64,000 nucleotides of DNA, from contig JAGYNR010000001.1 in the NCBI GenBank assembly GCA_018399715.1, positions 8,128-72,127 on the forward strand, written 5' to 3'. Numbering within the stretch: position 1 is the first letter of the stretch; every line of letters starts with the position of its first letter. Shown one piece after another: positions 7,049-32,779 of this stretch. The stretch is from Desulfobacterales bacterium (GTDB taxonomy: Bacteria > Desulfobacterota > Desulfobacteria > Desulfobacterales > SKZT01). The notes beneath the pieces were generated by a model, which saw nothing but the letters and a program-made list of their open reading frames with translations, did no database searches and had not been told where the DNA came from. The position numbers and the translations under genes were made by a program.

Positions 7049-7151
7049 TTCCTCCTGTTTTGCATTTTTAAATATCTATAAACGGAGGAATATATATGAT
7101 GAACGGCATTCGTTACAACAATAATATTTCATCCCCTTAAAATAAAATTTA

Positions 7152-7769
7152 TTATCCTTCATTTTCATATAATCTATAGTAATCAATTACCTTTTGCACA
7201 TACCTTTGGGTTTCCGAATATGGTGGAATGCTTCCGTATCGATCTACGGCGGAGGGGCCTGCATTGTATGCCGCAAGAGATAGCAATATATCGCCGTTAT
7301 ATCGCTGGAGCATATTTTTTAGATACCGGGCACCCCCCATTATATTTTGCAATGGATCAAAAGGGTCATTGATAGACAATAAATTGAAATTTTGCGGCAT
7401 GATCTGCATTAAACCGATTGCGCCTTTTTTGGATATGGCATCACAATTAAAATTCGATTCAACCTTGATAATCGCTTTGATCAAATTGCAGGAAAGATTA
7501 TAGTGAGTAGACGCCTGAATAATATATTCATTGATTTTTTCAATATTAAAATAAGTTGAATCCGTACTTCCGATTTCTTCCAGGTACGGTTTATAATTTA
7601 AAGGCTTTCCTGCGGTTGCAACGGGTGTATTGGTAAAATGAACCACCCCGTCTTTGTCTACATATCTGAATATTTCCGCTCCCCCTGTTATGGGACTGCA
7701 AAAACTTAAAAAACATATCAGCAAAAAATAGTTTTTTGCGCTCAATACATTCATCCTTGAAATAATCAT
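7152..7769 (-). CDS. lytic transglycosylase (DUF4124-like N-terminus plus SLT domain)
   Basis: IFRYVDKDGVVHFTNTP (DUF4124-like). SLT block KVESNFNCDAISKKGAIGLMQIMP and AAYNAG. Confidence 0.8.
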   Translation of the reverse strand: MIISRMNVLSAKNYFLLICFLSFCSPITGGAEIFRYVDKDGVVHFTNTPVATAGKPLNYKPYLEEIGSTDSTYFNIEKINEYIIQASTHYNLSCNLIKAIIKVESNFNCDAISKKGAIGLMQIMPQNFNLLSINDPFDPLQNIMGGARYLKNMLQRYNGDILLSLAAYNAGPSAVDRYGSIPPYSETQRYVQKVIDYYRLYENEG

Positions 7770-10700
7770 TAAAACATCTGAAGCTGAACCTGACTATTTT
7801 GGGTCTTGTTTTTTACATTCATTTTCTCGTAAAATCTCAGACATTGTTCGATTTGACCTACGAAAGGAGACAACTTTCTGTTTACAATTTTTCCATATAT
7901 CTGTCGTCTGTGAGACCAGGTTAAAAAAAGATACTCCATGGCCCGGGTCATGGCTACATAAAAAAGGCGGCGTTCCTCATCTATATCCTGGCAAATACCG
8001 GCATCATGGTTATATGGAATCAACTCATCTTCGCAACCCGCTATAAATACTACCGGAAACTCTAATCCCTTAGACGCATGCATTGTCATCAATGCAACTC
8101 TTTCGGCTTTTGGGATATAAACATCAGGATCGGTCTGTAATGCTGCCATAGACAAAAATTTACAAATATTCTGACCAAACTCCATGGAAAAATCAAGAAT
8201 TTTATTCAACGCTTTTTGGGAGGAATCATTGGTATTTTCCAGAGATCTGCTGATATAATGGTCAACCAGTATTTCTAATTTTTTACGGACAGTCACAGCA
8301 TCTTTGCACTTTTCTTTCATCCGTTGTATATCGGCCATGGTAAAGGTGACCAACTTCTTCCGGTCTGGTAAGGTCGCCATATTTTCGACTATTCGTAGCA
8401 TTGAAATGACTTCAACGACACTTTTCGTGCTAAAAACATGTTTTTTGGCCACCAGTTGATAAGGAATTCCTCGTCGCCTGAAAGCATCCGCTAACACTTC
8501 TCCTTGTTTTCGTGTTCTGAAAAGAACAGCAAAATCAGAAAAACCTTTATCCCGATGTTCATTGCTAACCTGAATTCTTCCGGAATCGATACTATAAAAA
8601 TCTGCTCCGCCCATAAGTTTTTCCACCTGCCGGGCGATAGTTTCCGCTTCGGCTTTTTCAGAGATGGTTTCAATGATCCTGACAGTTGATATACTTTTTA
8701 TGGTAGAAAAAAGTTGTTCAGATGAAAATTCTGATCTTGATTTTTCAATAACCTGGTAAGATGCCTTTAAAATCGTTTGGGAAGACCGGTAGTTTCTTTT
8801 AAGACGGATAATTTCGGCATCCGGATAATCATTCAGCAATTGTTGAAAATACATAATATCCGAACCTCTGAATCCATATATTGCCTGGTCGGGATCACCA
8901 ATAACGCAAAGCTTAGAACTTTCATCAGCTAGTAAATTCTTTGTCTCACCCGGTACCATTGCCTTGATAAACCGGTACTGGGCCTTATTCAAATCCTGAT
9001 ATTCATCCACAAAAATATACTGAAATTGATCCTGATACGTTTTCAAAAAAGCAGAATCGGACTCAAAGCGCTTAACCACGTTGGTGATCAAGTCTTCAAA
9101 ATCCCAAAGTTTTTCGGATGCTAACCGTTTCTGATAAACATCAAAAACGGTTTTAATGACATCTCCGGTAAATTGGGCGGGGAACTCAATATTTTGTTTT
9201 GCCGCTACAATTTTATCCAATATGACCTGCGGTTTCTCTTTAATATGAATTCCCTCGGACAACAAGCCGTTGATCGCTTCCTGAACATAAAATATCCGAT
9301 CCTCATCATTTAAAACCGAAAAACCTTCATATTCGGGTAATTTTTGTAACATATGGATACAAACCGAATGAAAGGTTCCTACAAACGGCAGTTGTTTTAC
9401 ATTATTTCCCAATAAACGGGTAAGGCGATCTTTCATTTCAGAGGCGGCTTTATTTGTAAACGTTACCGCCAGGATTTTTTCCGGTATCACCTGTTTTTCC
9501 CGGATCAAATGGACAATTTTGTACGTTAAGGTTCTTGTTTTTCCGGTTCCGGGTCCGGCTACAATCAAAAGAACCCTTCCCAAATGATAAACGGCATGAC
9601 GCTGCTCTTCATTAAGGCATTCGGTTTTTCTGTTTTCGGAATCTTTCCCGGTATGTTTTTTCATGGGTTTTGCCGGAGACGTTTTTGGGAGGAATATTTC
9701 CGGTTCATCTGTTTTTCGTGTTACGCGGTTTTCTTTTTGAACAAAGATATCATCCTGGGAGAATACAAAAAGAGATTTTTGGGCAGTGAGTATCTCGCGT
9801 TCCCCGTCTTTAAAAATTTTTACTTTTCCGTATTCTCCGTCATAACCAGGATGTATAAAAACTTTGTTTTCCCGCATACGCTCTACTGCTACTTTTAACA
9901 GCGGAACATTGATGTTATCCAAAGCTTCAGACGGTATCTGATATAAAACTTTAAGTTCGGGTCCGCCTTTGGAAATAACGACGTGATATGCCTCTTCAAC
10001 TTTTTTGCTTTTTGGTCCGACCCGGAAGATTTCTGAAAGGATATCAACAAGCGGAACAATACTGATATAGGTATTTGAATATTTCGGTTTGATACCCTCA
10101 CAACGGTCAGACAACGCATTGATCCGGTAAAGCACGCCGAGTGTCAAAGGTTTTCCGCACACCGGGCAAATGCCATTATTAAGACAGGTTTGTTCGGGAT
10201 TAAAACAGATGCCGCATTTACGATGTCCGTCATAATGATATTTACCTTCTTGGGGATAAAATTCAAGGGTTCCTATAAACTTTTCAGGATCACCCGTCTT
10301 CATGGCATCAATGATGGAAAAATAATCTAAACCTGTATTGAACAAGTTAGCTTCTCTTCCCAAATTTGCCGGTGAATGGGCATCGGAATTGGAGACCAGC
10401 GTTAAATTATCGAGACTTGATATTCTCCAGTTCATCGCAGGATCGGATGACAGACCGGTTTCAACAGCGGTTATATAAGATGTCAAATCTTCAAAACACT
10501 CCCGGATAGAATCAAAACCTGATTTGGAACCTAATACAGAAAACCAGGGTGTCCAGATATGGGCAGGGATGAAAAAACCATGCTCAGATGTATCCAGCAT
10601 TATTTCCAGTAAATCTCTTGAGTCTAATCCCAATATGGGTCTTCCATCTGAGGCAATGTTTCCGATAGCTGAAAGTTTCGCAGAAAAATCAGAAACCGCT

Positions 10701-11050
10701 TTTAAATCAGGAAAAAAAATCAGGTTATGAACCTTACGGGTTTTTCCGTTTTTTTTATAAATATTGCTGATTTCAGTTGTCAAAATAAACCGGACATCGT
10801 TTCTGCATACGCTGGGTACCAGTTTATCACATGATTTTGCTATATCCGGTTTTAAGCGAAACAGCCCTTGTTCTGCCGGAACCAGTTTTTCCCGAATTTC
10901 CTCAAACCATTCGGGATGCGTAAAATCACCCGTTCCCACAACGGTGATACCTTTTTTCTGAGCTGATATATAAAGATTTTCTAGGTCCAGATTTTTGGCA
11001 GTTGCCCGCGAAAATTTAGAATGAACATGAAAATCCCCAATAAATCTCAT
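7769..11050 (-). CDS. EndoQ-like PHP/Zn-finger endonuclease fused to a UvrD/PcrA-type SF1 helicase
   Basis: N-terminal part: DFHVHSKFSRA, GTGDFTHPEW, PAHIWTPW, SNSDAHSPANLGREAN, a Cys4 finger and PGYDGEYGKVKIF. C-terminal part: AGPGTGKT, AVTFTNKAA, DEYQD, GDPDQAIYGFRG, MHASKGLEFPVVF and YVAMTRA. The likely start is ATG 11048-11050 with an AAGGA SD. The ORF is open to 11101. Confidence 0.8.
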   Translation of the reverse strand: MRFIGDFHVHSKFSRATAKNLDLENLYISAQKKGITVVGTGDFTHPEWFEEIREKLVPAEQGLFRLKPDIAKSCDKLVPSVCRNDVRFILTTEISNIYKKNGKTRKVHNLIFFPDLKAVSDFSAKLSAIGNIASDGRPILGLDSRDLLEIMLDTSEHGFFIPAHIWTPWFSVLGSKSGFDSIRECFEDLTSYITAVETGLSSDPAMNWRISSLDNLTLVSNSDAHSPANLGREANLFNTGLDYFSIIDAMKTGDPEKFIGTLEFYPQEGKYHYDGHRKCGICFNPEQTCLNNGICPVCGKPLTLGVLYRINALSDRCEGIKPKYSNTYISIVPLVDILSEIFRVGPKSKKVEEAYHVVISKGGPELKVLYQIPSEALDNINVPLLKVAVERMRENKVFIHPGYDGEYGKVKIFKDGEREILTAQKSLFVFSQDDIFVQKENRVTRKTDEPEIFLPKTSPAKPMKKHTGKDSENRKTECLNEEQRHAVYHLGRVLLIVAGPGTGKTRTLTYKIVHLIREKQVIPEKILAVTFTNKAASEMKDRLTRLLGNNVKQLPFVGTFHSVCIHMLQKLPEYEGFSVLNDEDRIFYVQEAINGLLSEGIHIKEKPQVILDKIVAAKQNIEFPAQFTGDVIKTVFDVYQKRLASEKLWDFEDLITNVVKRFESDSAFLKTYQDQFQYIFVDEYQDLNKAQYRFIKAMVPGETKNLLADESSKLCVIGDPDQAIYGFRGSDIMYFQQLLNDYPDAEIIRLKRNYRSSQTILKASYQVIEKSRSEFSSEQLFSTIKSISTVRIIETISEKAEAETIARQVEKLMGGADFYSIDSGRIQVSNEHRDKGFSDFAVLFRTRKQGEVLADAFRRRGIPYQLVAKKHVFSTKSVVEVISMLRIVENMATLPDRKKLVTFTMADIQRMKEKCKDAVTVRKKLEILVDHYISRSLENTNDSSQKALNKILDFSMEFGQNICKFLSMAALQTDPDVYIPKAERVALMTMHASKGLEFPVVFIAGCEDELIPYNHDAGICQDIDEERRLFYVAMTRAMEYLFLTWSHRRQIYGKIVNRKLSPFVGQIEQCLRFYEKMNVKNKTQNSQVQLQMF

Positions 11051-11109
11051 CACTTGTCCTTTATGGATATCCACTGTTAATAACAATGGGAAGTTGTTCA
11101 ATTAACTCT

Positions 11110-11305
11110 TTAAATATTGTTGATAACATCATACTTATGAACAAGAATATATTGATTGTCAAAAAACTAAAAAAATAAATGATTCAATGGATATCTTATC
11201 AACATTCGCAAATGAAACCATAAATAGAAAAATCAAACAGTTAAAACAATGATAACGAAATAAACAATTTGTAGTATTAATATTGTTATATAAATATAAA
11301 ATCAT
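11110..11305. repeat. AT-rich imperfect direct repeat, left copy (partner at 19248-19443)
   Basis: The first 35 nt match 31/35 and a distal 35-nt block matches 28/35. The spacing between the two blocks is 150 nt in both copies. It contains DnaA-box-like TGTTGATAA (11118-11126) and TTATCAACA (11196-11204). Confidence 0.75.
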
Positions 11306-11377
11306 AACAACAGATGTTAAAAAAGAAATATATCGATCAAAACGGCAGCAAATCCACCCATTGATGACTCTATATCA

Positions 11378-14005
11378 TTAGGCTTCGATTACTATCCCCT
11401 TCCTTAAACCTGAAAACCATTGGTCGTATAAAACCGGCGTAAGAAGATCGAACATGTAATGCTGCCGGGCATCCGGGCGGTATTTTTTGGAAATATCAGC
11501 GATATTCACCGTTTTTAATCGCTGGTTTACCTTTTTAAAGTGTGCCTTGGCGTATTCGGCCTTGGCCGGGGTGGATTCGTCCTGGTCGTCATCCGACTTG
11601 ATTTCTACCACCCGGATCAGATATTCGATGCCCTCGTCCTGAAAATTTCTCAACGTCTCAATGTGGTTATTTTGTCCTTTGGTGATCAGTTTTAACAGGT
11701 AATTATCCAAATGTATTTTAATAAAAAAATCCGGGTTAAATCCCCGGCGTGTTCTGTCTTTACCGCCTCGCCAGAATTCGTAGTCTATGCTGTAAAATCC
11801 CTTGTCCGGGGATTTAATCCAGGCATCGATATAATCCGCGTGATCGATTAACTGAAAAACAAATTCCCTTTCCGGGGTATGCGACACTAAAACGATGTAT
11901 TGCGGGTTTTTAAGTCTGGACGCGTTGACCACATAGGGGGATCGTTCATCGTTTTCCACCAATGATCGGATAATATCCGGATGTGCTGTAATAAAAGGAT
12001 CTGCATCAAACATCGGAAGCATGAGTTGTTTACCTTGTTGTTGGGTGCCTCGCCATTCACTCAAAAATTCCAGAACTGTTTTGTTGTCATCAGAAAGTTC
12101 GGTTTCATAATCTTCACTCAAAAATGCGGTGGCATCTTTATCCAGTTCACTTAACCGCAGACTGTGTTTATCCATATCGCATGTTGCTGTGGGTATAAGG
12201 TTACCCTCAATATTTTCAAAAATCCGTTTTTTGGTTCCCGGCGGCAAAAACTGGTTAAAATAATTTTCGATTTGTTTTTTGTTTTCCAGGGAAAGCCGGT
12301 TGCCTGTTATATCAACCGTTTCCATGGCTTTTTGGATGACGGCCTTGATATCTTCCTCGGTCGGATACCGATCGGCAACGATCACCTCGCCAAAGTCAAG
12401 ATGACCGGCCCGAAATAGTTCGGGATTTATCAGGGGCCTTGAGGAAATATACATGTCACTCTGGGTTACTGCGTCGACCAGTTCTTTGATATGATCGGCA
12501 AAACGGTCATGATTGGTCACGGTCAGACAGGGATATGTTTGATGAATATGAGCGCTGGGAATATTTCGGGGAATCCGCAACCCACGGCCCAGTACCTGGG
12601 ATATGAGAAGCTTGGATTTAAACACCCGCTCTTCCATGGGCACAATCTGAAAAACATTGTCCACATCCCAACCTTCGGACAGCTTGTTGACGGCGAATAT
12701 GTACTCTACAGAACCACCTGTTTTTTGGGGGTTAATTTCTTCAATATGTTCCAGTTGCTCCTTATATTCAGATTCTGAAATGCGGCTGACCACGCAGATC
12801 ACCTTTTGTCGCATCTGGCCAGTAATTTCAGAATCCGTGCCGGTCGCGCCCTTATGCTTCTTTTCGTAATCAGCCAAAAATTTGATAAACGCTTCACTTC
12901 TGTCTTGAGCGTTTTTCTGGGTAGGGCAGATAAATATCGTGACCGGCTTGACCTGCCGTTTGCCTCTTAACCGGTAGGCGTATTTTTTCCGGTTATCCAG
13001 GTGGTTTTTCAGAACAATCTCAAACCGCTGATCAATTGTCAGGGGCTTATCGCCTTCATCGGTCCGGGTACGCACATTGTTGTTGATGTCCTTGATGTAT
13101 TTCTGATTAATGGCATCTTTGATGGAATAGTTGTAGATGATATCGGCAAAATATTCATCCTTGTTATAAGGCGTGCCAGTAAAGCCGATATGCCGGGTAA
13201 TCTTCTTGTTTCTTCTTAAAAACTGCATCCACAAGCGTTCTTCTTTTTCAGCAGTTCGCTTACCTTCGACCGTTTCATCCTTGTCCATGACCAATTGATT
13301 TTGTGAAAATTGTAAATGGGAATAGGCATGATGGATTTCATCGCCCAGCACCAGCACTTCGTCTGTGTTTTTAAACAGGGTATCGGTAATCGAGCCAAAC
13401 GTGTAAACCGCGTTGATATTTTCAATAACGATGGAATCGTCTTCAATGGGATCGTTGTCGTTTAAGATGTTAATGGCTTTACCCCGATATTTCATTGGCA
13501 GCTCTTCCATCAGGCTTTTATCGGTCATCAGGTCTTTAAACTTTTCCCGAAGGCCCTGTTCGATAATAGTTGAAGCCGGCCCCAACACCAGAACCCGGCG
13601 GGTTAGTCCCATCACCAAAAAAAGATATGCCACGGCAAAAATCACGTAAGACTTGCCAGTGCCGGTAGCCATGTGCACAACGCCGGACAACCGGTCCGGT
13701 AAGGGTAAATGGTTTACCAACATTTTTTGACTGCTGAACCGCTGCTGAATCCGGGGCTTCACGTAATTATCTTTAGCTAAATCGACAATGGTTTTATAGG
13801 CACCACCCCAGAGATAGATCATGACCTGCTTAATGGCCTGCTTCTGGTATTCCCGCGTTCCGGTTAATTGGTCTACATAATCTTCAATCTCCGAAAAATT
13901 GAATTTGTTGTAGTTACACCGCCGGATATTGATGTCCAGGGTGTGTTCGGACAAGTTCATCTTTTTAACGACCGATTTTTTCTTTTTCTGTCTGGACATG
14001 AGCAT
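11378..14005 (-). CDS. res: Type III restriction endonuclease, Res subunit (SF2 helicase-nuclease)
   Basis: Walker A MATGTGKSY and DEAH-like LGDEIHHAY. Size is 875 aa. The start ATG overlaps the extended mod frame as TAATG. Confidence 0.8.
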   Translation of the reverse strand: MLMSRQKKKKSVVKKMNLSEHTLDINIRRCNYNKFNFSEIEDYVDQLTGTREYQKQAIKQVMIYLWGGAYKTIVDLAKDNYVKPRIQQRFSSQKMLVNHLPLPDRLSGVVHMATGTGKSYVIFAVAYLFLVMGLTRRVLVLGPASTIIEQGLREKFKDLMTDKSLMEELPMKYRGKAINILNDNDPIEDDSIVIENINAVYTFGSITDTLFKNTDEVLVLGDEIHHAYSHLQFSQNQLVMDKDETVEGKRTAEKEERLWMQFLRRNKKITRHIGFTGTPYNKDEYFADIIYNYSIKDAINQKYIKDINNNVRTRTDEGDKPLTIDQRFEIVLKNHLDNRKKYAYRLRGKRQVKPVTIFICPTQKNAQDRSEAFIKFLADYEKKHKGATGTDSEITGQMRQKVICVVSRISESEYKEQLEHIEEINPQKTGGSVEYIFAVNKLSEGWDVDNVFQIVPMEERVFKSKLLISQVLGRGLRIPRNIPSAHIHQTYPCLTVTNHDRFADHIKELVDAVTQSDMYISSRPLINPELFRAGHLDFGEVIVADRYPTEEDIKAVIQKAMETVDITGNRLSLENKKQIENYFNQFLPPGTKKRIFENIEGNLIPTATCDMDKHSLRLSELDKDATAFLSEDYETELSDDNKTVLEFLSEWRGTQQQGKQLMLPMFDADPFITAHPDIIRSLVENDERSPYVVNASRLKNPQYIVLVSHTPEREFVFQLIDHADYIDAWIKSPDKGFYSIDYEFWRGGKDRTRRGFNPDFFIKIHLDNYLLKLITKGQNNHIETLRNFQDEGIEYLIRVVEIKSDDDQDESTPAKAEYAKAHFKKVNQRLKTVNIADISKKYRPDARQHYMFDLLTPVLYDQWFSGLRKGIVIEA

Positions 14006-14133
14006 TAATCTTTAAGAATAAAAGGGTTGCTTTCATTTCCGTGCTTGTCGATGGCAATTACTGCCACACTGTTGGTTAATCCGGAAATTTTGATTTCCTG
14101 GTTTTGGTTGATATCCCTGGCAAAGACTGTTTT

Positions 14134-16065
14134 TTACATATCAAAAATGTTGTTGTCATAATTTACATCTACCAGCAACATGGCCAGACCTTCCAGGCCG
14201 TTAAATTTTTCACCGTTTCGATTTAAAATACCGGTTTTAAATTTTGTAATCTTTAAGCCCTCCTTGATTTTTTTGACGGCAATCTCAACCTCATCGTTAA
14301 AATAAAAACCGGTAGCGTTGATCAGGTGATTGACATTCTCCTGGGAGTTGGGCTGTTCGGTAATCTGAAAATTGCGGGAGACCTCCTCTAAAACTTTATA
14401 GGGAAACTTTAGCAGCTTAAAGTGAACTTCCTTGCCGCTATCGTTTTTCAGGATGGTATCACCGATGACGGTACAGGTCTCCGGTGTGATAATGTAATAG
14501 TCACCTCTTAATTTACCGCCGGACTGAATCAGGATCTGTTTTAAATAATCTTCGTCGATGCGGATGTCTTTCAGGTATTCATCTTCCCAGACCGGGTATA
14601 CCTCCACCGGGTGCCCGTCCTTTTCCCCGTAGATATTGACCAGTTTGTACTTGCCGTTGAGGTTTTTCGAGTCCCGGGGCAGTTGAAACAGGCCCAGCAC
14701 AAAATTGATGTACGCATCCTTGTTTTCCCGCAGGTTTATGATACGGGAAAAGTCATAGGCCCCGCAGGAGACCACGCAAAACGGTTGAGGGCCTTTGCCG
14801 TATTTTTTATTGGCGCGAACATTTTTATTCAGGTCTTTTGATTCTCCAATGCGCAGGATGCGTTTTTGCATGGTGTAAATGGCATGCTTGCCGAAATCAC
14901 AAACTATCCAGCGACGCCCCAGCTTTTCCGCCACTGCCGCCGTGGTGCCGGAACCGGCAAACACATCCATTACCAAGTCGCCGGGATTGGATGAGGCGCG
15001 AATGATACGTTCAAGAAGGGCTTCTGGTTTTTGGGTGGGGTAATCAACTCTTTCTTTCGCTTGTGAATTAATATAATTGATTTCCCAAACATCAGGGGCA
15101 ATAGTTTTTGTTATATCAATTACAACTTTTCGAGCAAATTCATTAATATCAATTCTGCCTTCTTGTATTGCTGCATCAACTTTTTCTTTGTTATAAATAA
15201 TTAGTTGGGGCTGCCTTTTCCCATTTATATATACAGAATTTCTATCCCAACCCTTTTCATGTTTCTTTCTTTGTCCTTCTGTCGGTTCAATATGTACTTT
15301 ATTTAGATTATATTGATGTGTTTTTGAATACCAGAGAATTGAATCGTGCATATTTTGAAATGAATCGCTTGCAGCCGTCCATCTTCGGTAAAACCAAACT
15401 ATATCATTTCGAAAATTATTTTTTCCGAATACTTCGTCTAAAATCACTTTTATATAATGGCTCATTTTATAATCCAGATGGACATAAATACTTCCGTCTT
15501 CCGCCAAGATATTTCTCAATAAAATCAGTCGCTCTCTTACGCCTTCGATAAACTCGGCTGCTACCACCTTGTCTGAATAACTCTTTTCATCCCCCGCCCC
15601 GCCAAAATCACTCTTGGTCGCAAACGGCGGATCAATATAAACCAGCTTGACCTTGCCTTTAACCTTGTCCTTGATCAGGGGGTCCTGGTTCTGAAAGCAG
15701 GTTTTTAAGAACTGAAGGTTATCGCCCTGAACGATCAGGTTCACCCAGTCGGTCTTTGATTTGTTCAGAAAGTCCAGGAGTTCGAGCTGGGTATGGCCGG
15801 AGAGGCTCCCCTCGTTGAAAAATCGCTCGGCCTGCAACGGCGAGCCGCTTTCCATGGCAAAAGTCTGGTTTAAAATAGCGGCATCACTGCGTTTGCCCGC
15901 ATATTCCAGGGTAGCTATTTTGGCTTTATCCAGGATAGCCACATCATATTTCTCCGCCACATGGGGAAAAAGCTTGGGCATCAGCTCCGGGGGCGGTTCG
16001 GTGCTTTCGTTGATGGCTTCCATAATCTGCTGTTTTTCTTCATCGGTCAGGTTTGTCTTTGCCAT
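14134..16065 (-). CDS. mod: Type III DNA methyltransferase, Mod subunit (beta-class N6A/N4C MTase), apparently truncated by an in-frame TAA
   Basis: Motif [16 protein letters not shown] comes before motif [25 protein letters not shown]. The same frame continues for 42 sense codons after the TAA (14134-14136), down to a TAA at 14005-14007. Confidence 0.8.
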
Positions 16066-16251
16066 TATTGCTCTCCGGGTTTCATAAAATTCGGGCCTGT
16101 AAAAACCGTATTCATCTTCATCTGGTTTAGGGCAGTGATAATTGCGTTTTATTTTTTATCGGCCCAATATAAATCTTTTAATATCAAACTATTAGAATTA
16201 TTGCATTAGGTCACGATTGGGCATTTTGCGTTTTATCGGCCCAATACGACC

Positions 16252-16815
16252 TTAATTTTTCGGATACCATAAGGCGGCCCTGGTAGCACCGATATGGTAG
16301 ATCTTTCCATCGCTTTTAAGTTCAGCAACCAGCTTTTTTACCTGGTTGTCGGACAGAAACGGTAACACCTGCATGAGCTCCTTGAACCGGCTGCCGGATT
16401 CTTTGTTATCTTGTATGTGTTTCATCAGCAAAGCCTTGTTCGTTTCCCGGTCCAGCCCTTTTTTGCGAGTGTAAGCGCCTTTTTGACCGGTCATTTTATA
16501 ATATCCTCGTCCCAGCATATAGCGGACACCACGACCCCGACCGTATCGTTCGATAATGCCCATGGAAACCAGTCGTTGAAGTCTGGATTTGAGTGAATCC
16601 GGTATGGGTTGACTCCGGTGAATCAGGTCCAGTAACAAAAAATCTTCGGTTCCGAAAAGCTCTAGTCTTTCCCTACCCACTTTTTCCAGAAACTGAAGAA
16701 AACGAACATCCTGAACCTCGCCGTTTAAGGTTAACGTCACCTGATAGGCGTCCGTTCCCGTAAAATCCGGAATGGATTTACCTTCCTGGATGCTTAACTC
16801 AAACATCAGGTTCAT
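16252..16815 (-). pseudogene. COG2865 RecG-like ATP-binding/transcriptional regulator, C-terminal fragment (wHTH)
   Basis: It continues the 16819-17337 ORF in the same frame across one TAG. The junction reads ...GLVERSG * G MNLMFELSIQEG..., matching the family pattern ER.GsGi.rm. Confidence 0.6.
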
Positions 16816-16818
16816 GCC

Positions 16819-17337
16819 CTAGCCGGAACGCTCCACCAGCCCGCATTTGGAGAAGATATCGGCCACACGGCGGTTGCGCGGGGCCTGGCGGTTTAAGATG
16901 TTATGCTCATTGATTCCCGGCGGAAACCCGCCGGGACTTTCAATCACCAGACGGCGAGGGTACTGACGAACAAAAATATTGCCGGGATGCCGGTAGTCCC
17001 GGTGACTGACGGCATTCAAAACGGCCTCGCGGACGGGCCGTTCGGAAAAGGTGGGAATATCCTCGATAAACAGACCTGTCTGGAAATGCTGCAAGTCGTT
17101 GCGAAGGTTGATGATATCCCACAACTGGTCGTAGAAACTGAAAAACCCCTGCCGGAACTCTACCCGCTGCTGAGCCGGACCGGAGGCATCTGAAGACCGG
17201 TATTCAAATACCACTTCCGCCCGGGCAAGATGACGGCCCATGGCCGCATGGGTGCCGAACAGAATCAGAGCGGCATAGGTCGGCCTGCCATCTGCCATGG
17301 CTTCAATATCATTTAAAAATGGTACGTTCCGTTTCAT
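16819..17337 (-). pseudogene. COG2865 RecG-like ATP-binding protein, HATPase_c_4-like fragment lacking the N-terminal AlbA_2 domain
   Basis: TYAALILFG, REAVLNAVSHRDYRHPGNIFVRQYPRRLVIESPGGFPPG and RNRRVADIFSKCGLVERSG. Visibly more GC-rich than its neighbours. Confidence 0.6.
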
Positions 17338-18506
17338 TAGCGGCTAAAAGCCTGTGTCAACAACTGGTCAAGTACATTAACTTCGGACTGCCCCGGTTGT
17401 TCCGGCCTCAGGTTGAACTTGTTTATCCGCAGGAACCGGTAACCGTAACTTTCCAGCTCTATCTGGCGTCTGATGTCATAGTCGAGGTATTCGGCGGAAA
17501 AATTGTGCTTGGTGACAGTGTCCGGGTTTTTCGTGTGAAATTCCACACCATCATACTCCAGAATCAGGGCTTGTTCCCGCCCATTTCGGGCAAGAGTCAG
17601 CAGAAAATCTATACGGTATCGGGGAATCTGTTTATGGTATTTCGTCCGTATATATTCACCAATATTAAATTGGGGCACGATCTTGAGATTTTCCCGGTGT
17701 GTTTCCACAAACCGTGTATTTATCAGCAACTGATAAAGGCGCTCTTCAGCCGGAGACTCAAAAACAGACGGGTCTTCTACAAAAAAATCGTTCTTTTTCG
17801 TGGTTTCAAGAAGCGCATGGTAGTGCTTCAAGGCATCTCCCAGGCGTGAGTGGCTGTAATCGCTGATCTGCATATTGTGAACAAATACCATGGTGTCTTT
17901 AGCTCTGCTGAACCCAACATTTAAGCGCTGCATTTTCAGGCTGCGAGTAGTGTCGGCCGTTCCACCGATCACAGGATAAATGGTTCTCAAATCCGCATTG
18001 ACATATTTTTTATCTTCCACAAAAGAATAATAAACTATATCGCGCTCTTCGCCCTGAACATCACCTACAAACCAAACTGCCAGGTTGTGGTTTCGTTTGA
18101 GTTCCGGCAGATTCATTTTTTCGTTGATGGCCTGCTCCATTCGGAGCTGCTGTTCCTTAAACGACGTAATAATGCCGATAGAGCCTGTAAAACCGTTGGA
18201 GATCCTGGTATTAAAATCTTCAATGATGGCGTCGATTTCATCAAGATTAACGTTGCGGCCTGAATCGCCCCTGGTTTCAACCCGAATAAACTGAAGCACC
18301 TGGATGACGGGCCGGGTACGAATCCGATTAACCGTCAGTTCAAGCTGGGCCGACTGGTAAAAAAATGTATTGGAATAGTCGATAATTTCCGAAAAGCTGC
18401 GGTAATGGTCCCGTAAAGAAGTAGTGTAGTTGGCGATGGCTTTGGCAAAACTCAGGGTAGAGGTACGTATTTTGACTGTCACGTGCCAGGAGTTGCAGTA
18501 TGTCAA
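17337..18506 (-). pseudogene. SF1 helicase C-terminal (AAA_12-like) plus DUF559/Vsr-like endonuclease domain, remnant
   Basis: GDVQGEERDIVYYS and RLNVGFSRAKDTMVFV (helicase motifs V/VI). C-terminal YRIDFLL...LILEYDGVEFH. No Walker A anywhere upstream. It overlaps the next ORF in another frame. Confidence 0.6.
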
Positions 18507-18945
18507 ACTGCTGTTTTAAAAAATGGGTGCTGTTGAAAATTGATGCAGGGACTATAGAAAGTCCCAGTTGGGCTTTTAACCGACCTATTTTCTGATCCTG
18601 TTGATCAATCAATATCTGTTCAAGTTGCTTTCGAAGAGCCAGGTTGTATTTTCGAGTCCCCTCCTGAAAAGCTTTTGTCTTTTGCTGTTGTTTTCTTTCA
18701 AAATCCAATGGGTCATCTTGTAACGCTACCTGGATTTCCTGATCAGATGCAATAAGTACCTTATCTGCTTTAACAATAGCGACAAGTTCCTGTTCAACGC
18801 ATGTTTGTAAATAACCCGGACCGAATTTATCAGAAAGCGCTTTCTCGATATCTAAAAGCACATCGTCTTTTAGCAGCGTTATTGTATGCTCATGTGACTT
18901 TATCACAACGGGTTTATTATCGCCTGCTTTAATTTTTGCCAGCAA
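18340..18945 (-). pseudogene. upstream fragment of the same helicase-nuclease gene (frameshifted, N-terminally truncated)
   Basis: It overlaps 17337-18506 by 167 nt in a different frame. Its own frame is closed by a stop at about 18970. No ATPase motifs. Confidence 0.45.
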
Positions 18946-19628
18946 CTGTTCCTGGAATTTTTGAAATAATCATAGGTCAAAAGAAAACTCATCATCAGTC
19001 CAGCAATAATTGACAAGTGTTTTAAAATTGAATTTTGTTTCCGTAAATGCGGCAAAGTAATTTAGGATGGTAACTGGAAGCTTTTTTGAGTTTGACCGCA
19101 TATGCTTTTCGTTTTTTTTCTATTATTGGGATAACAATGATATGTTGGCACCATCTTTTGTTCTATACAACGTAAATATATCCTGATTTTTGCTTAACTT
19201 AAAGGATATCCTGTTTGTAAACATGAGAAAAATGGCAATGTTTAGATTAAATCTTGTTAATAACATCACACTTATAAACAAAATTTAGATTTTGGTCAAA
19301 AAGTCAAATCATATCCACAATTAATATATAGATGATTAACAGTTGCAGAGAAATGAATGGGAAATAAAATCAAGTAATTAGAGAATTGATAGAGATATAA
19401 ACAACGTATAATATTAATAATATTATATAAATATAAAATAATTATTTAATGTTATAATATCCACAGACGACATACTGTACGGAAAAAAATCTTGTTTACC
19501 TTTATAAAACAGTATATAGTAATTTGATTATCATTTTGATCCTGTTATGGTAGTTTTGAAATCTTAACTGATATCAGATGACATAATTTTGTATATAAAT
19601 CAAGTTATCGAAAGTTTTAAATATCAAT
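18946..19628. other. candidate replication-origin (oriC-like) AT-rich region at a coding-strand switch
   Basis: It is a 680-bp non-coding AT-rich spacer. All genes from 3840 to 18945 are on the minus strand and all from 19629 to 25063 are on the plus strand. ATATCCACA occurs at 19311-19319 and 19457-19465 (8/9 to TTATCCACA). dnaN-gyrB lie immediately downstream. Confidence 0.4.
19248..19443. repeat. AT-rich imperfect direct repeat, right copy (partner at 11110-11305)
   Basis: See the left copy. The offset between copies is 8138 bp throughout the aligned blocks. Confidence 0.75.
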
Positions 19629-20240
19629 ATGGGGCTCTTATCTACATCTGTTTCTATCACACAATACCAGGTAAAAGGAACACTTGAATCTGTTCTAGAT
19701 ACTGTAGGAAAAGGATTGAAAAAAAACAGTATACAGGAAATCGATGATGATGTGTCAGACAGTGCTATTGGATGGACTTCCATTGATCATCCGTTTAAGC
19801 CTGATTTTGAAACATCATCATTTATTTTCGGTATTTATCTGGTTTTCTCATTGAGAATTGACAAAAAAAGTATTCCCGTAAAGGTGTTAAATAAATATTG
19901 TGCATTAGAAGCTGACAAAATGTTGTCTGAAAATGGACGAAACTATTTGAATCGAAATGAAAAACGAATGATCAAAGATCGGGTATATACACAGCTTTTG
20001 AAACGCTATCCGGCAACACCGAGTATTTATGATGTCATATGGAATTATGAAGCGGGAACGTTATGGTTTTTTTCAAATCAAAAAAGGCCAAATGAAGAGC
20101 TGGAAACACTTTTCTCAAAATCTTTCCATTTAAATCTGATCCGGATTTTTCCATTTACTGCAGCGGATTTGACAATGGATCTGAAGGAAAAAGAACGGGA
20201 TATATTGATTCAATTGTCGCCCACACAATTTTCGGAGTAG
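19629..20240 (+). CDS. RdgC-like recombination-associated protein, N-terminal-half homologue
   Basis: It aligns by eye to about the first 175 residues of E. coli RdgC: GW..., KKSIPVKVL, LNRNEKRMIKDRVYTQLLKR, WNYEAGTLWFFSNQKRPNEELETLFSKSF. Confidence 0.55.
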   Translation: MGLLSTSVSITQYQVKGTLESVLDTVGKGLKKNSIQEIDDDVSDSAIGWTSIDHPFKPDFETSSFIFGIYLVFSLRIDKKSIPVKVLNKYCALEADKMLSENGRNYLNRNEKRMIKDRVYTQLLKRYPATPSIYDVIWNYEAGTLWFFSNQKRPNEELETLFSKSFHLNLIRIFPFTAADLTMDLKEKERDILIQLSPTQFSE

Positions 20241-20245
20241 GTGTT

Positions 20246-20770
20246 ATGCTCGATGTTTCAGTGTCTTATAACCGCTACAAATTTCTTGGACATGAATTTT
20301 TAACATGGCTTTGGTTTCTGACAGAAAATCAAAGGGATTTTATTCATGAAAAAGTGGCTGACTTGACATCACTGGAAATTGGCAATCGGGTTGTTTTGGA
20401 AAACCGTTTTAAAGATACTTTGGAGACCATAACGATCAAAGGCGATGATGCTGGTTTAGAGGAAGGAATTCTATCATTAAAAAAAGGGGCGGTAGTAACC
20501 GAGTTAAATTTAACCTATACGTTTGACGAGTTGGAATGGCAGTTTTCATTGAAAGGTGAAAGCCTTGCCATTTCAGGATTAAAAACACCGGCAACATTGC
20601 CTGTAAACAATACAGAGGATATTGAAGAAGTTGTTTTAGAAAAAGTAATGCATTACGAAAAAATGATTGATTTTATCAACATAATTTTTCGTGAGTTTAT
20701 TAACAAAAGAATATCTGAAGATTGGGAACAAACGGTTGTTCCTGAAATCAGAAAATGGATTACGAAATAA
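20246..20770 (+). CDS. RdgC-like protein, C-terminal-half homologue
   Basis: FLTWLW, ITIKGDD..LEEGILSLKKGAVVTELNLTY..WQFSLKGESLAISGLK and a terminal acidic/helical part parallel RdgC residues from about 175 to 300. It has its own ATG with a GGAG 8 nt upstream. Confidence 0.5.
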   Translation: MLDVSVSYNRYKFLGHEFLTWLWFLTENQRDFIHEKVADLTSLEIGNRVVLENRFKDTLETITIKGDDAGLEEGILSLKKGAVVTELNLTYTFDELEWQFSLKGESLAISGLKTPATLPVNNTEDIEEVVLEKVMHYEKMIDFINIIFREFINKRISEDWEQTVVPEIRKWITK

Positions 20771-20847
20771 GCTTATATTGATAAGCCGGAAACGAAGATA
20801 ATTGATGCTTTTTTACGTATTGTCGTAGGGATATTAGGATACACATT

Positions 20848-24395
<3,548 letters not shown>

Positions 24396-24403
24396 GCTAA
24401 CTG

Positions 24404-25063
24404 ATGTTAAACTTGATATCCATTACGGCAAGAGATATACCGGATGCCTGGTTTCAGTGTGTATATAATATTATTGATAACGGGTATGAATACACGATTG
24501 AAAGGGGCAGTTTTGAAGGGCAGAAAAGATTAGAGTTTGATTATTGCACTATTCAAATCAAATATCCGGGTGTCAGGCCTTTACTTCCGGATATTCCACC
24601 GGCGCTGGGAATTCCGAATCCGGTTGCCGAAGGATATATAGAGGAATACCTGCCCTATTTGATGACATCCAAAAAACATCCCAATGAGGATTATACTTAC
24701 GGTGAGTATCTGGAAAGTCAAATTGCTGAAGTTATCCGAATATACAAAGAAGACGGCTACGGTACCAACCAGGCGTATATGACCGTTGGAGATCCTACCA
24801 CTTTGTATTTAAAAGACCCGCCGTGTCTAAGGGGAATAGATACCAGAATTCGGTATGAAAAACTTCACTTTATTGTCTATTTCAGGTCATGGGATTTATG
24901 GAATGGTTTTCCGGCAAATCTGGGGGCTATTCAGCTTTTAAAAGAATACATGGCCGATGAAATCGGAGTAAAAGACGGAGAAATTATTGCTGCCAGCAAG
25001 GGGCTTCATCTTTATGACTATATCTGGGAGTTGGCGAAATTAAGGACCATGAAAGATTCATAG
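24404..25063 (+). CDS. thymidylate synthase family protein, short archaeal-type (219 aa)
   Basis: DPPCL (catalytic Cys context), YFRSWDLWNGFPANLGAIQLL and GLHLYDY parallel ThyA motifs PPCH, RS.D...G.PFN and H.Y. Confidence 0.6.
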   Translation: MLNLISITARDIPDAWFQCVYNIIDNGYEYTIERGSFEGQKRLEFDYCTIQIKYPGVRPLLPDIPPALGIPNPVAEGYIEEYLPYLMTSKKHPNEDYTYGEYLESQIAEVIRIYKEDGYGTNQAYMTVGDPTTLYLKDPPCLRGIDTRIRYEKLHFIVYFRSWDLWNGFPANLGAIQLLKEYMADEIGVKDGEIIAASKGLHLYDYIWELAKLRTMKDS

Positions 25064-28037: not shown

Positions 28038-29660
28038 TTAATCAAATAGTCTTATGCCGCGGCGTTCTAAAAGGCTTCCTTCAGCGAGATAAAGCTCTGT
28101 TAACGCAATTCGGTAATTAACGATTGCTTCTACCTCGGAGATTTGGCTGGCTAACAGATCCCGTTGGGCCTGTGCCACCAAAAGAGATGTACCGGCACCC
28201 ACAGCAAAACGATCCTGCTCCGCACGGAGGGTTTCTTCCTGAAGCTGACGGGTTGCTGTGGAAGCTGTAATTTGTTGCCTGGCTCTTTCCACCTCATTTA
28301 CCGCCAGCCTGACATCTATGCATACCATTTGTTCAAGATTGGAAAGAGCTGCGCTTTCCTGACGTACAGATGCTTTGGCTGCATGATCGCGGGCCTTGGC
28401 CGCACGATTTCCCAGGAAATGATTCAAACGAAATCCCACCTCAAAATCATATGTGTCGCTATCCAGCTCATGAAAAGATTTTGAAAAAGAATCTGCATAA
28501 CCACTGTACCCCAGGGCTATAAATAAGTCGAGACGGGGCAGCAGGCCATTTCGGGTGACCATTGTTTCCAGACGATTTTGATGTATAAGAAGCCGGGTTT
28601 CCTCCAAATCCGGACGGGATTTTAAAGCAAGTTGAAGTCGTTCACGGATATCCGTGATGTGCCGGGGTGTCACCTGAAGCTCACTGGTAGCATTTAGGGG
28701 ACAATCCAGACCCATTCCCGTCGGATAAATCAACCGAAGCAGTTTAAACCGATTGTCAAGTGCCAGACTCCGGGCGTTGATCAGTGCCTGCTTCCGCAAA
28801 GCCACTTCCGCCCGTGTCGCAGCAGCCTCGATTTCAGGGTATAATCCTACGGTGATCCGCTCTTCGACTTCATCCCGCTGTTTTTGGGCCAGTGCCAGCG
28901 ATTGTTCAAAGATATCAATTTCTTTTTTTGCCAGCACGTATTTCCAATAAGCTGTTTCTGCCTTTGCCAGAAGTGCTTCCGTAAACCCGCGCAATTGATG
29001 AACACTGGCTATGGTATCCAGTTCCGCCTGCCGCACACCCGCCAGGTTGGCTGCTGGCCCGAAGCCCTTCAGAAGAGACTGGACCAAACTTAGCCCAATG
29101 CGACTGACCTGTTGTTCCGGAGTACGGTTAGAAACAGAGCGATTTTGACCTACCGTCATTTCCAAATTGGTTCCGCTGGGTAGAAATTGACGAATACCTG
29201 CCTGATAAGTCGTGTCACTGCCTTCCACATCGAAACGGGTACCCGTTGAACGGGCGGTTTCAGAGGATTTTTCTTTAAAATATTCAACTTCCCCGAATAG
29301 TTCCGGGTCATAAATTCCCCGTTCTATATCCTCAAAGCTTCCCTTTATCACCGGATTAAACTGTTCCACTTTAAGTTCCTGATTATTTTTAAGCGCCAGC
29401 ATTACTGCCTGTTCAACCGAAAGATCGAGTATTTTTTCAGTTGATTTTTCCGGCAAAGTAGGTAATTCAGGCATTATTTCAAACCGGGTTTGAAGTTGGT
29501 TTACTGAATCAATGCCCGAAAATTGATTATCTCCGGCGAGTCGGCTGTCCTCAGGAGTAAAAACCGGCCAGCGGTCCGGCGTGATACACCCACCGATGCC
29601 GGTCAGTATTACGGGATAAATCAAAAACAGGATAAATTTAGGTAAAAACTGATTTATCAA
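28038..29660 (-). CDS. TolC-family outer membrane efflux protein
   Basis: 540 aa with two coiled-coil repeats typical of OEP/TolC. It overlaps the stop of the RND gene by 4 nt. Confidence 0.75.
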
Positions 29661-31276
29661 TGTTTCATCTCTTCTTTGGTTTGATTATCTCTTTTTGATG
29701 GGTGACGATGTTGCCGGTGAAACACAGAATACACGGCCGGAATGAGCACCAGGGTAATGACAGTTGACCCGGTAAGCCCGCCGATAACCACCCGCGCCAG
29801 CGGAGCCTGAGCATCAGCCCCTTCACCGATACCCAGTGACAGCGGCAAAAGTCCCAGTATGGTGGTCGTAGTGGTCATCAGGATAGGACGTAATCGGCGC
29901 CGCCCGGCCTCGGCAACGGCATTGTTTATGGTCATTTTTTTCCGGCGGAGCTGATCGGCCTGATCCACCAATAAAATTGCATTGTTGACCACAATACCGC
30001 CCAACATGATACACCCGATATACGACTGCACATTCAGCGTCGTATGCGTTATAAACAACGTGATCAGAACCCCTGCTGCCGCCAGCGGAACAGAAAACAT
30101 GACAATCACGGGATTTCGTAAGGATTCATATTGGCAGGCCAGAACCATGTATACCAGCACCAGCGCCAATAACAGTGAAACAAAAAGCTCCCGAAACGAT
30201 TTCTGCTGCTCTTCAAAATTGCCCGCCACAACCAGATTATACCCCATTGGATGGGGAATTTGGTTGAGCAACGCCTGCACATCCGTTGCCACAGACCCCA
30301 GGTCGCGTCCTGCCACATTGGCCTTAACAGTTACCAGCCGCTGTTGGTCCTTACGATCAATCAGAATCGGGCCTCGGCTGGCCTGGGTGCTCACCAGGTT
30401 CCGCAACATCACGGGTTCACCTGAAGCTGTCGTCAGTGTGAGGTCGAGAATTTCATCCAGAGATCTTTTTTCTGCATTGGCAAGCTGAACAAAAATCCGA
30501 TAGGAATCCCCCTCTGTGCGGTATTCTCCGGCCTGGGAACCTGCCACAGCCGTTTCAATAATTTCTGTTACATCCCGTACGCTCAATCCCATATCCGCCA
30601 CTTTGGGACGATCCACGCGGATTTCCTGCTGAGGAATACCTGCGCGTCGGCTGATTTGGATATCGGTGATGCCGGGGACACTGGAAATAGTGTTTGCCAC
30701 CCGTTTAGACAAATATTCAAGGGTATCGAGGTCAAAACCCCGGATATCAATGGTTACGCCTTCTTCTCCCCCTAAAATCCGTTCCAGGATAAACTGACCC
30801 TGAGGCGCCCGGGTTCGGATATCCATCCCGGCGATACGTCCGGCCAGAAGGTTACGAAGGTCTCCTGCAATTTCCATGTTGGAACGGTTTCTTTCAGACG
30901 ATGGTACCAAAGACATGCGAATTTCACCCTGAGAAACCTGTTCCGACCATCCCCCTGATGTTCCGGCTGTTGCAACCATGGAAACAGCTTCAGGCACTGC
31001 TGCACTGACAATTTCTTCCATTTTTCGGGTTTGCCGGTCTATCAGGTCAAGACGTGTGCCGATTTCCATCTCACCGGTAACAAGCACTTCGCCTTCATCA
31101 CTGGGCGGAAGAAATTCAGTGCCGATCATCGGTATGAGCAAAAGACTTGCTCCCAAAAGACCACCGGCAACAGATATGGTTAAAAACCGGTGATTTAAAA
31201 CCCGATAGATCAACCCATGGTAGGCGTTATTGAAACTATCAAAGAAAGTCCTCGATATTCCGGCCATCCTGCCCAT
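29657..31276 (-). CDS. RND (HAE1-type) efflux permease, C-terminal half (TM7-12)
   Basis: It is in the same frame as 31295-32779, separated from it by TAA plus 6 sense codons. It aligns to the second half of AcrB-type pumps (FLPPSDEG after TM7). Confidence 0.7.
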
Positions 31277-31294
31277 AAATTGGTATTTTTCTTT

Positions 31295-32779
31295 TTATAT
31301 GTTCTTATGTGAAGCCAGCAGACGAGACGCCAGCATTGGAACCAGGCTGAGAGAAACGGCAAGGGAACAGATCAGAGCAAACGCCATCACATATGCCAAC
31401 TCCTCAAATAAAATGCCGGAGACACCACGAACAAAAACAAGGGGAAGAAACACCACCAGCGTGGTGAAAGTGCTGGCCACAATAGCCGGGGCTACCTCTC
31501 TAGCGCCTTCCACTGAAGCGATCATAGGCGGTTCATGGTTTTCCTCCTGACGGCGGAAAATATTTTCCAGTACGACAATGGAGCTGTCCACCATCATGCC
31601 TATCCCCAGAGCGAGTCCACCCAATGTCATCAGATTCAGGGTGAACCCTCCGAAATAGATCAGCATGAAAGTGGCAATAACCGAAATGGGTATTGCCATG
31701 GATATCACCAGGGTACTGCGAAAGCTGCGCAGAAAGAAAAGAAGGACAATAATCGCCAATCCTCCGCCATACAGTACAGACCGGGCAACATTGGAGATGG
31801 AACGTTGTATAAAATTTCCCTGGTTGATAACCGGGACAATGTTCACCTGAGGAAAAACCGCTTTAAGAGATTCAATTTCCGCCAGTATCCCGCGGGATAC
31901 CTCCACGGTATTGGCATCCGATTGTTTCCGGATTCCCACGCGAAGGCCGCGGTCTTTGTTGACCCGTACGATGCGGGTGTGTTTCTGATAGGTGTCTTTG
32001 ACATGGGCAACCTGATCAAGTGTCACCGCAGCGCCATCCTGAATAAAGATTACGGTATTTCGGATTTGATCCAGGCCGGCGAATTCTGAGGGTGCCCGAA
32101 GGGTTACCTCATAACGTCCTTCCTCTATTTTTCCCGCAGGCAAATCCAGGTTGGCATCCCGGATGACACGAAGTATTCTGTTTAAAGAAATTCCAAGCGC
32201 TTTCACACGATCCGGATCAAGTTCAATTCGGATTTCCCGGTCCCAACCGCCCCACAGGTCCACCTGGGCAACCCCGGGAATCCGGGAAAAACGGTACCGA
32301 ATCTGATCTTCAATCAGACGGGTGAGCTCCACAGGATCAATGTTGCTGGAAATTCCAAGAATGACGACCGGAAAACTGGAAATATCGAATTTGCGAACCC
32401 GTGGTTTAACGATATCTTCAGGAAGTTCATTGATTTCATCTTCCAAAAAAGATTGAACATCAAGAGCAGCCGTATCGATTTGGGTACCCCAGGCAAAAGT
32501 CACCCGGACACGGCTTCTGCCGTCGGATGAAGTGGATGTAATTTCTTCCACTCCCGGCACTGTAGCCACGATTTCTTCTACAATTCTGGTTACCAATCGC
32601 TCGATAACCTCAGGACTTGCCCCTTCATATTCCGTGGTGATGCTGAGTGTCGGCAGTTCAATGTCCGGCAACAGATCTATTCTGAGTCTTCCCAAAGAAA
32701 CAGCTCCGATAATGATAATCATCAGGGCTACCATGGTCGTAAAAATCGGTTTTCGTACACTGAATCCCGGAAGATTCAA
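31295..32779 (-). CDS. RND (HAE1-type) efflux permease, N-terminal half (TM1-6)
   Basis: It starts with the typical FSVRKPIFTTMVALMIIIIG. It ends in the central cytoplasmic loop at an in-frame TAA (31295-31297). Confidence 0.7.
   Translation of the reverse strand: MNLPGFSVRKPIFTTMVALMIIIIGAVSLGRLRIDLLPDIELPTLSITTEYEGASPEVIERLVTRIVEEIVATVPGVEEITSTSSDGRSRVRVTFAWGTQIDTAALDVQSFLEDEINELPEDIVKPRVRKFDISSFPVVILGISSNIDPVELTRLIEDQIRYRFSRIPGVAQVDLWGGWDREIRIELDPDRVKALGISLNRILRVIRDANLDLPAGKIEEGRYEVTLRAPSEFAGLDQIRNTVIFIQDGAAVTLDQVAHVKDTYQKHTRIVRVNKDRGLRVGIRKQSDANTVEVSRGILAEIESLKAVFPQVNIVPVINQGNFIQRSISNVARSVLYGGGLAIIVLLFFLRSFRSTLVISMAIPISVIATFMLIYFGGFTLNLMTLGGLALGIGMMVDSSIVVLENIFRRQEENHEPPMIASVEGAREVAPAIVASTFTTLVVFLPLVFVRGVSGILFEELAYVMAFALICSLAVSLSLVPMLASRLLASHKNI

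Follow-up and report, generated by a model that had tools for sequence, protein, structure and literature searches.

A conserved DnaA-box module beside dnaN in Desulfobacterales, a candidate chromosomal origin, is duplicated around a type III restriction-modification island

In cyanobacteria, for example Synechococcus elongatus, oriC lies upstream of dnaN and dnaA is found elsewhere. DnaA boxes also cluster outside origins, as in datA and DARS of E. coli, in the clusters of B. subtilis and in DnaA-regulated promoters. The locus described here resembles these clusters in having several intergenic DnaA boxes next to a promoter; unlike it, they usually lack an adjoining extreme A+T tract and show no conservation in the place next to dnaN that oriC held ancestrally.

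Here we analyse a 64,000-nucleotide stretch of DNA from a Desulfobacterales bacterium (the window), which carries two copies of a 247-bp module that we call S (S_A, 11059-11305; S_B, 19198-19442). S invites comparison with the incC-type dnaA-dnaN origin of B. subtilis and its basal unwinding system (PMC8287927, PMC6669920), where the boxes also lie immediately upstream of dnaN. Both have a last box, a short spacer (G+C-rich in Desulfonema magnum) and an A+T run of 3-nt periodicity, and the inverted box pair of S is also present in the dnaA-dnaN spacers of metagenomic Firmicutes-like contigs. On the other hand, the S locus has a UvrD-like helicase gene instead of dnaA, its boxes carry A or G rather than C at position 6, and in the window an rdgC-like gene and a gene X stand between S and dnaN and the module is duplicated. 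S is like the cyanobacterial oriC (cf. PMC7198777) in being linked to dnaN with dnaA unlinked, whereas the cyanobacterial box consensus TTTTCCACA differs from the S boxes, and those origins are experimentally supported, S being a candidate. A dnaN-linked DnaA-type origin without dnaA would be of a known kind, as in cyanobacteria; what would be new is its occurrence in this lineage, the variant box in a rigidly spaced inverted pair, and an island between two copies.

The locus and the two copies of module S

The first-pass annotation had proposed a candidate oriC at 18946-19628, described as a 680-bp AT-rich non-coding region at a clean strand switch followed by six consecutive plus-strand genes. 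The region is indeed AT-rich (GC 0.26, and 0.24 in 19102-19628), but a decayed AAA_12 helicase gene occupies 18946-19101 with its 5' end, leaving 19102-19628 (527 bp) as true non-coding DNA. Minus-strand ORFs do lie to the left and plus-strand genes to the right, but the switch is local and concerns a single operon of five genes, not six (19629-25063); after 25063 the minus strand carries nearly all genes (26.9-58.9 kb). The features outside the island are as follows.

7769-11050, minus strand: UvrD-like helicase with a long N-terminal extension of MJ0043_C type (Pfam UvrD-helicase/UvrD_C)
11059-11305, no strand: S_A, the distal copy (from alignment and box content)
11075-11083: S_A box TGTTAATAA
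11118-11143: S_A inverted pair P1, TGTTGATAA-N8-TTATGAACA
11196-11204: S_A box TTATCAACA
11258-11266: S_A degenerate box AAATAAACA
11267-11305: S_A A+T tail
19198-19442, no strand: S_B, the proximal copy (from alignment and box content)
19255-19280: S_B pair P1, TGTTAATAA-N8-TTATAAACA
19293-19319: S_B pair P2, TGGTCAAAA-N9-ATATCCACA
19333-19341: S_B box TGATTAACA
19395-19403: S_B box ATATAAACA
19404-19450: S_B A+T tail, extending beyond the end of the repeat
19457-19465, plus strand: second ATATCCACA 9-mer, just beyond the A+T tail
19492-19520, plus strand: putative sigma-70-type promoter of the rdgC-like operon, TTGTTT-17 nt-TATAGT (conserved in L001; k-mer enrichment)
19629-25063, plus strand: operon RdgC-like-X-DnaN-GyrB-thymidylate-synthase-like (Pfam; same order in L001-L010, L087 and L209)
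19629-20240, plus strand: RdgC-like protein, 203 aa (Pfam RdgC)
20246-20770, plus strand: protein X, 174 aa, without detectable relative
20848-21963, plus strand: DnaN with all three clamp domains (Pfam)
21969-24395, plus strand: full-length GyrB (Pfam)
24404-25063, plus strand: short thymidylate-synthase-like protein (weak Pfam match, E=2.6e-8)

Two relatives are used repeatedly below. Of the relatives free of the island, the closest is L001 (GCA_963986735.1; RdgC-like protein and DnaN 81% identical), in which a single 447-bp spacer holding one S separates the UvrD-like gene from rdgC-like-X-dnaN-gyrB. L087, a metagenomic contig with a 99% identical DnaN, has the island with its genes intact. 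The ATG at 11050 is taken as the true start of the UvrD-like gene, as placed by alignment with L001; the gene is transcribed divergently from S, and it faces the locus likewise in L001, L208, L209 and L210.

The partial duplication noticed 8 kb away is borne out, with 11059-11305 and 19198-19442 aligning collinearly at 66-67% identity, and the partner 9-mers TGTTGATAA (11118-11126) and TTATCAACA (11196-11204) lie where they had been placed. Both ATATCCACA 9-mers singled out earlier, at 19311-19319 and 19457-19465, are exact; the former is the right half of the conserved pair P2, but L001 has not conserved the latter. The distance from the end of S_B to dnaN is 1.4 kb and takes in the rdgC-like gene and X.

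Further claims concerned the genes themselves. dnaN and gyrB are both real and lie 5 bp apart without recF between them, and the local absence of dnaA is confirmed, as DnaA probes found none in the window while strongly detecting dnaA in unrelated contigs. With the same probes, no dnaA was found within 10 kb in 91 sequences (the window and 90 relative loci). As for the "rdgC-like genes" upstream of dnaN, the first is RdgC-like (E=1e-7 for its N-terminal half with Pfam RdgC, and E=0.0012 in a profile comparison with PDB 2owl), but the second, X, gave no match in Pfam, PDB or profile-profile comparison. We also considered a split RdgC, with the two genes as RdgC halves or paralogues, and found no support for it, X having no similarity to RdgC.

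X invariably comes together with the short RdgC-like gene (33 residues are invariant among the 86 copies recovered), and the two genes form a cassette that changes its position with respect to S and dnaN. In Desulfobacterales the RdgC-like family is found widely, with 1761 matches and 415 genome loci. The putative promoter at 19492-19520 would give the operon a leader of roughly 100 nt, and the k-mers ACGCTATA and ATATAGCG (23/80 and 25/80 loci) and CTTGTTT (24/80) are enriched upstream of rdgC. A consensus promoter scan of the window did not call this site, and the matches that it gave were no better than in shuffles. Downstream of gyrB, the short thymidylate-synthase-like protein (219-263 aa) is found in the window, L001, L002, L004, L208 and L210, and is missing from L209.

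Within 7000-25000, GC content is 0.35-0.40 in the helicase gene, in S and in the rdgC-gyrB operon, compared with 0.47-0.50 for most of the window and 0.44-0.56 for the island genes. Because L001 shares this low GC (0.39), it looks like a regional property rather than the mark of a recent import. Rfam and tRNA scans of the window gave no match.

Box density, duplex stability and strand polarity

With the E. coli consensus TTATCCACA and at most one mismatch, each S copy holds only two boxes, against 0.34 expected in 18946-19628 (P=0.04) and 0.11 in the partner region (P=0.005). The core TATN[AC]ACA, defined post hoc from the relatives and this window and hence yielding optimistic P values, occurs five times in S_B (19198-19470; 0.34 expected) and four times in S_A (0.37 expected), where an oriC is expected to hold at least three boxes within a few hundred bp. 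This post-hoc core has 28 matches in the window, yet more than two per 280 bp are found in S_B and S_A only, and neither count was ever attained in 5000 dinucleotide shuffles.

An origin is also expected to adjoin an A+T-rich unwinding element, and each S tail provides a candidate. By nearest-neighbour energy, 19407-19447 (0% GC) is the least stable duplex of the 64 kb and 11267-11307, in the S_A tail, the second least stable; the two tails rank lowest at 40, 60 and 100 bp alike. Both copies formally contain the published succession of a box and three or more DnaA-trios with no more than 16 bp between them (PMC8287927), yet 58% of dinucleotide shuffles pass as well, and the rule has no discriminating power in DNA as AT-rich as this.

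Strand polarity does not point the same way. GC skew in the window is positive over the five-gene operon only and otherwise tracks the coding strand. At fourfold sites, the skew is +0.03 to the left and -0.03 to the right of the locus, which, if meaningful, is opposite to that of an origin; no origin polarity was found by this measure in the window or in the 20-kb flanks of relatives. Likewise, the genes in the flanks of relatives show no bias towards co-orientation with hypothetical forks, and in the window transcription at 26.9-58.9 kb is directed towards the candidate, although efflux-pump operons make up the initial 12 kb (26.9-38.7 kb). The earlier oriC claim is sustained in part, by a conserved DnaA-box cluster, an unstable A+T tract and the link to dnaN, and weakened by the lack of skew polarity, by the local extent of the strand switch and by the 9-mer that is not conserved.

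Among the efflux genes, an AcrB-type RND transporter is encoded as two adjacent ORFs (29657-32779, minus strand) of 494 aa and 539 aa, covering profile positions 3-494 and 505-1021, respectively; this may be a frameshift, a pseudogene or a genuine split.

Module S across Desulfobacterales and its possible roles

The window and 90 relative loci fall into three gene arrangements.

Group 1 (the window, L001 and Desulfonema magnum): UvrD-like gene, S and rdgC-X-dnaN-gyrB, with the UvrD-like gene and the operon pointing away from S
Group 2: UvrD-like gene divergent from rdgC-X-S-dnaN-gyrB, with S between X and dnaN
Group 3 (L208 and L210): UvrD-like gene, S and dnaN-gyrB, pointing away from S, with rdgC-X elsewhere

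Throughout Desulfobacterales S is conserved, its neighbour always being dnaN or rdgC-X-dnaN, and the flanking operons point away from it in every arrangement. Its position is near 498 kb of 8.03 Mb in D. magnum (NZ_CP061800.1), near 2.16 Mb in MAG CP070697.1 and near 4.085 Mb in contig CAXXIG010000001.1. In L208 and L210, S stands directly between the UvrD-like gene and dnaN, without rdgC-X. Since S is retained in all three arrangements, the constant unit is UvrD-like/S/dnaN, and the adjacency to dnaA or dnaN that is typical of an oriC is found in the relatives, where S abuts dnaN. An apparent further arrangement without dnaN (L027) was discarded, as it reflects a scaffold gap (a run of N at L027:11314-11413, MAG CP070697.1) directly after the S boxes, that is, an assembly break at the A+T-rich module in a "complete" MAG.

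The architecture, conservation and insertion history of S can be read directly from these alignments. S is built around an inverted 9-mer pair, TGTTNATAA-N8-TTATNAACA, whose 8-bp spacer is invariant; frequently a second pair follows 38-39 bp downstream, then one or two single boxes, the last of which is followed by the A+T run. When we scanned 88 sequences (the window and 87 relative loci, 1.3 Mb) for TGTTGATAA-N8-TTATCAACA with at most three mismatches, nearly all matches fell within S, 260-375 bp upstream of rdgC or between X and dnaN, often in tandem. Strict boxes number 2-9 per 300 bp in S against a background of 0.27 per kb. In D. magnum nine perfect TTATGAACA boxes are packed into ~150 bp; beyond them come ATTTGCCCCC and TTAATAATATTATTATATATAAAA, in a stretch made up of a G+C-rich spacer and an A+T/trio run, a convincing instance of the box-spacer-trio order. 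In the sub-clade of the window the boxes are degenerate, and L002, L004, L006 and L010 have boxes with one mismatch but lack any strict cluster. At 8/9 positions the half-site agrees with the DnaA box of E. coli, and it has A or G at position 6 in 87/88 cases, T in one and C in none; the window has an exception in the conserved box ATATCCACA (19311), with C at this position. A positional scan with the E. coli box showed no enrichment upstream of rdgC and an enrichment downstream, between X and dnaN.

The same palindrome is found at dnaA-dnaN loci of other bacteria. Exact matches in public metagenome contigs lie at 120 loci or more; among the 120 listed, eight are near dnaA or dnaN, compared with roughly 0.4 expected at random by our own estimate; the listed matches come mostly from very AT-rich contigs. 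In L094, L130, L196 and L207 the palindrome lies inside the dnaA-dnaN spacer and is followed by ~70 bp, a single box, an A+T/trio run, a ribosome-binding site and dnaN, and in the Bacillus-like L207 it sits amid canonical TGTGGATAA and TTATACACA boxes. A match near a gene with a DnaA_N domain (L111) was set aside as an unrelated Firmicutes-like contig. Furthermore, the dnaA-dnaN origin of Geobacter sp. M18 has TATCAACA-type boxes, and the DoriC origin of Desulfobacterium autotrophicum HRM2 has a TTATTAACA box (supplement of PMC8287927). The literature on D. autotrophicum, its locus tags and SkewDB gave no origin position. Given the palindromes in dnaA-dnaN spacers and the published Geobacter and Desulfobacterium boxes, DnaA is most likely the ligand of S. 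S itself most likely corresponds to the dnaA-dnaN origin spacer of the ancestor, the helicase gene having replaced dnaA.

We lean towards the view that DnaA assembles on S and unwinds it as part of a chromosomal origin, left beside dnaN after dnaA moved elsewhere in this Desulfobacterales lineage. DnaA would bind the array of TTATNAACA-type boxes, namely the inverted pair with its 8-bp spacer, the second pair and the single boxes, and the oligomer would extend from the last box into the A+T tract, opening 19404-19450 in S_B or 11267-11305 in S_A. Forks would then depart on either side, running the same way as transcription of the two operons that point away from S. DnaA binding, unwinding, firing and the identity of the active copy are all predictions. 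The ancestral unit would have been a UvrD-like gene and dnaN-gyrB transcribed away from a shared S; the rdgC-like/X pair with its own promoter would have been inserted between S and dnaN in this lineage, and the 7.9-kb type III island would now separate two diverged S copies.

If S is an origin, Desulfobacterales, a large and environmentally important order, kept oriC with dnaN while dnaA left, and use the TTATNAACA box variant in a rigid inverted-pair arrangement. S would also serve as a landmark for rotating or checking assemblies, and for estimating growth rates from metagenomic read depth.

The most serious alternative, which we regard as possible but rather doubtful, is that S is a DnaA-box cluster without origin function, with oriC beside dnaA elsewhere. 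It could be the ancestral dnaN promoter, repressed or activated by DnaA, or it could titrate DnaA in the manner of datA or of the Bacillus DnaA-box clusters. In many relatives of groups 2 and 3 the last box is aligned to a TTGACA-like -35 element, with an A+T-rich -10 and ~60 bp from the dnaN start, as a promoter would have it. In the window, too, box 6 and the tail coincide in part with promoter-like hexamers, at a frequency no higher than in shuffles. The window's lack of skew and orientation polarity and the degenerate boxes of its sub-clade fit this alternative too, as do the DoriC-based positions at record ends in two Desulfobacteraceae genomes, which may mean next to dnaA. However, S stays whole also when rdgC-X, with a promoter of its own, comes between it and dnaN, and the nine perfect boxes, G+C spacer and trio run of D. 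magnum exceed the needs of an operator. Moreover, the S tails are the least stable DNA in the 64 kb, and the layout is that of dnaA-dnaN origin spacers of other phyla. Should S not be an origin, it would still be a well-defined, order-wide DnaA regulatory site, as predicted, for the clamp and gyrase operon.

It is quite unlikely, in our opinion, that some other dimeric transcription factor uses the palindrome as an operator to control the divergent helicase and dnaN operons, the resemblance of the palindrome to a DnaA box being coincidental. To our knowledge, none of the consensus sites of LexA, NrdR, ParB or CtrA fits the S motif. A strictly fixed 8-bp spacer and perfect dyad symmetry are typical of a dimeric repressor site, and none of the 88 half-sites has the C at position 6 of canonical TTATNCACA. 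But the 9-mer is also repeated in S singly, outside palindromes, the conserved window box at 19311 does have C at position 6, and the palindrome occurs amid the canonical boxes of the L207 dnaA-dnaN spacer, while TATCAACA-type boxes are found in the Geobacter origin (PMC8287927). Finally, we find it hardly credible that S is no more than an AT-rich spacer left by insertion of the island, in which box-like words arose by chance and do nothing in cis. In AT-rich DNA, finding 8/9 matches to TTATCCACA is of weak significance (P=0.04), but ~50 loci that have diverged to the family level share the conserved architecture, the clustering of boxes is significant with the post-hoc core, and of the 11 base substitutions that, with two end gaps, separate S_B from its L087 counterpart, 2/11 fall in boxes, one of them at the degenerate fifth position.

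Defence island and the history of the duplication

The candidate origin had been suspected of having a defence island inside or next to it, and a type III restriction-modification (R-M) island does lie between the two S copies.

11306-19197, minus strand: inserted defence island, 7.9 kb (Pfam, PADLOC; absent from L001)
11378-14005, minus strand: type III res (Pfam ResIII/SWI2_SNF2; PADLOC REase_III)
14134-16065, minus strand: type III mod (Pfam N6_N4_Mtase; PADLOC MTase_III)
16255-17319, minus strand: truncated SLFN (Schlafen)/AlbA_2-HATPase_c_4 gene (Pfam/PADLOC)
19101-17340, minus strand: frameshifted AAA_12 (Mokosh-like) helicase gene (Pfam/PADLOC; intact in L087)

As in type III R-M systems of other defence islands, adjacent res (ResIII/SWI2_SNF2) and mod (N6_N4_Mtase) genes are present, here with neighbouring Schlafen/AlbA_2 and AAA_12 helicase genes. 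The island differs from these in lacking an integrase, in being bracketed by diverged 247-bp S copies rather than short att sites, and in having two decayed genes; Pfam searches and a tRNA scan found no integrase or tRNA gene at it. Relative to L087, the window has deletions of 551 bp and roughly 300 bp. In the window (16255-19101) the Schlafen/AlbA_2-HATPase_c_4 gene has lost its first 184 codons and the AAA_12 helicase gene has an internal deletion and a frameshift; both are intact in L087:4547-8255 (a 97-99% identical contig). Between the same two sequences, res differs by a 240-bp in-frame indel and mod in its variable central block.

S_A and S_B have diverged from one another about as much as each has from the S of L001, so that the duplication must be old unless another lineage supplied one of the copies. 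In L004 (8900-9830), L006 (9250-9710), L002 and L010, two partial S-like copies (box and A+T tail) are present with 0.3-0.7 kb of unrelated, G+C-richer DNA between them, and the UvrD-like gene is cut down to its N-terminal MJ0043_C part. The duplication of S may predate the island of the window. It is conceivable, if improbable, that S is a recombination hotspot for capturing or swapping defence islands, the two copies being no accident; by one route, a single crossover would have integrated a circle bearing a foreign S, in effect oriC-bearing and from a related species. Were this true, two close and potentially competent initiation modules would flank an R-M island.

The duplication of S around an R-M island indicates that foreign DNA can lodge within the candidate origin region without destroying it, and bears on how origin-proximal islands arise. 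In Desulfonema ishimotonii (L086:11113-20338, BEXT01000001.1), ~6 kb including an ORF6N-domain gene lies between dnaN and gyrB, and gyrB contains an intein; we take this as another sign that the locus tolerates insertions. In two further relatives, a gene for a mobile-element protein predicted to recognise DnaA-box-like DNA, an IS200-like Y1 transposase fused to the C-terminal, box-binding helix-turn-helix of DnaA (L029:3192-4175 and L030:3220-4272, both minus strand) lies directly upstream of rdgC, beside the box cluster.
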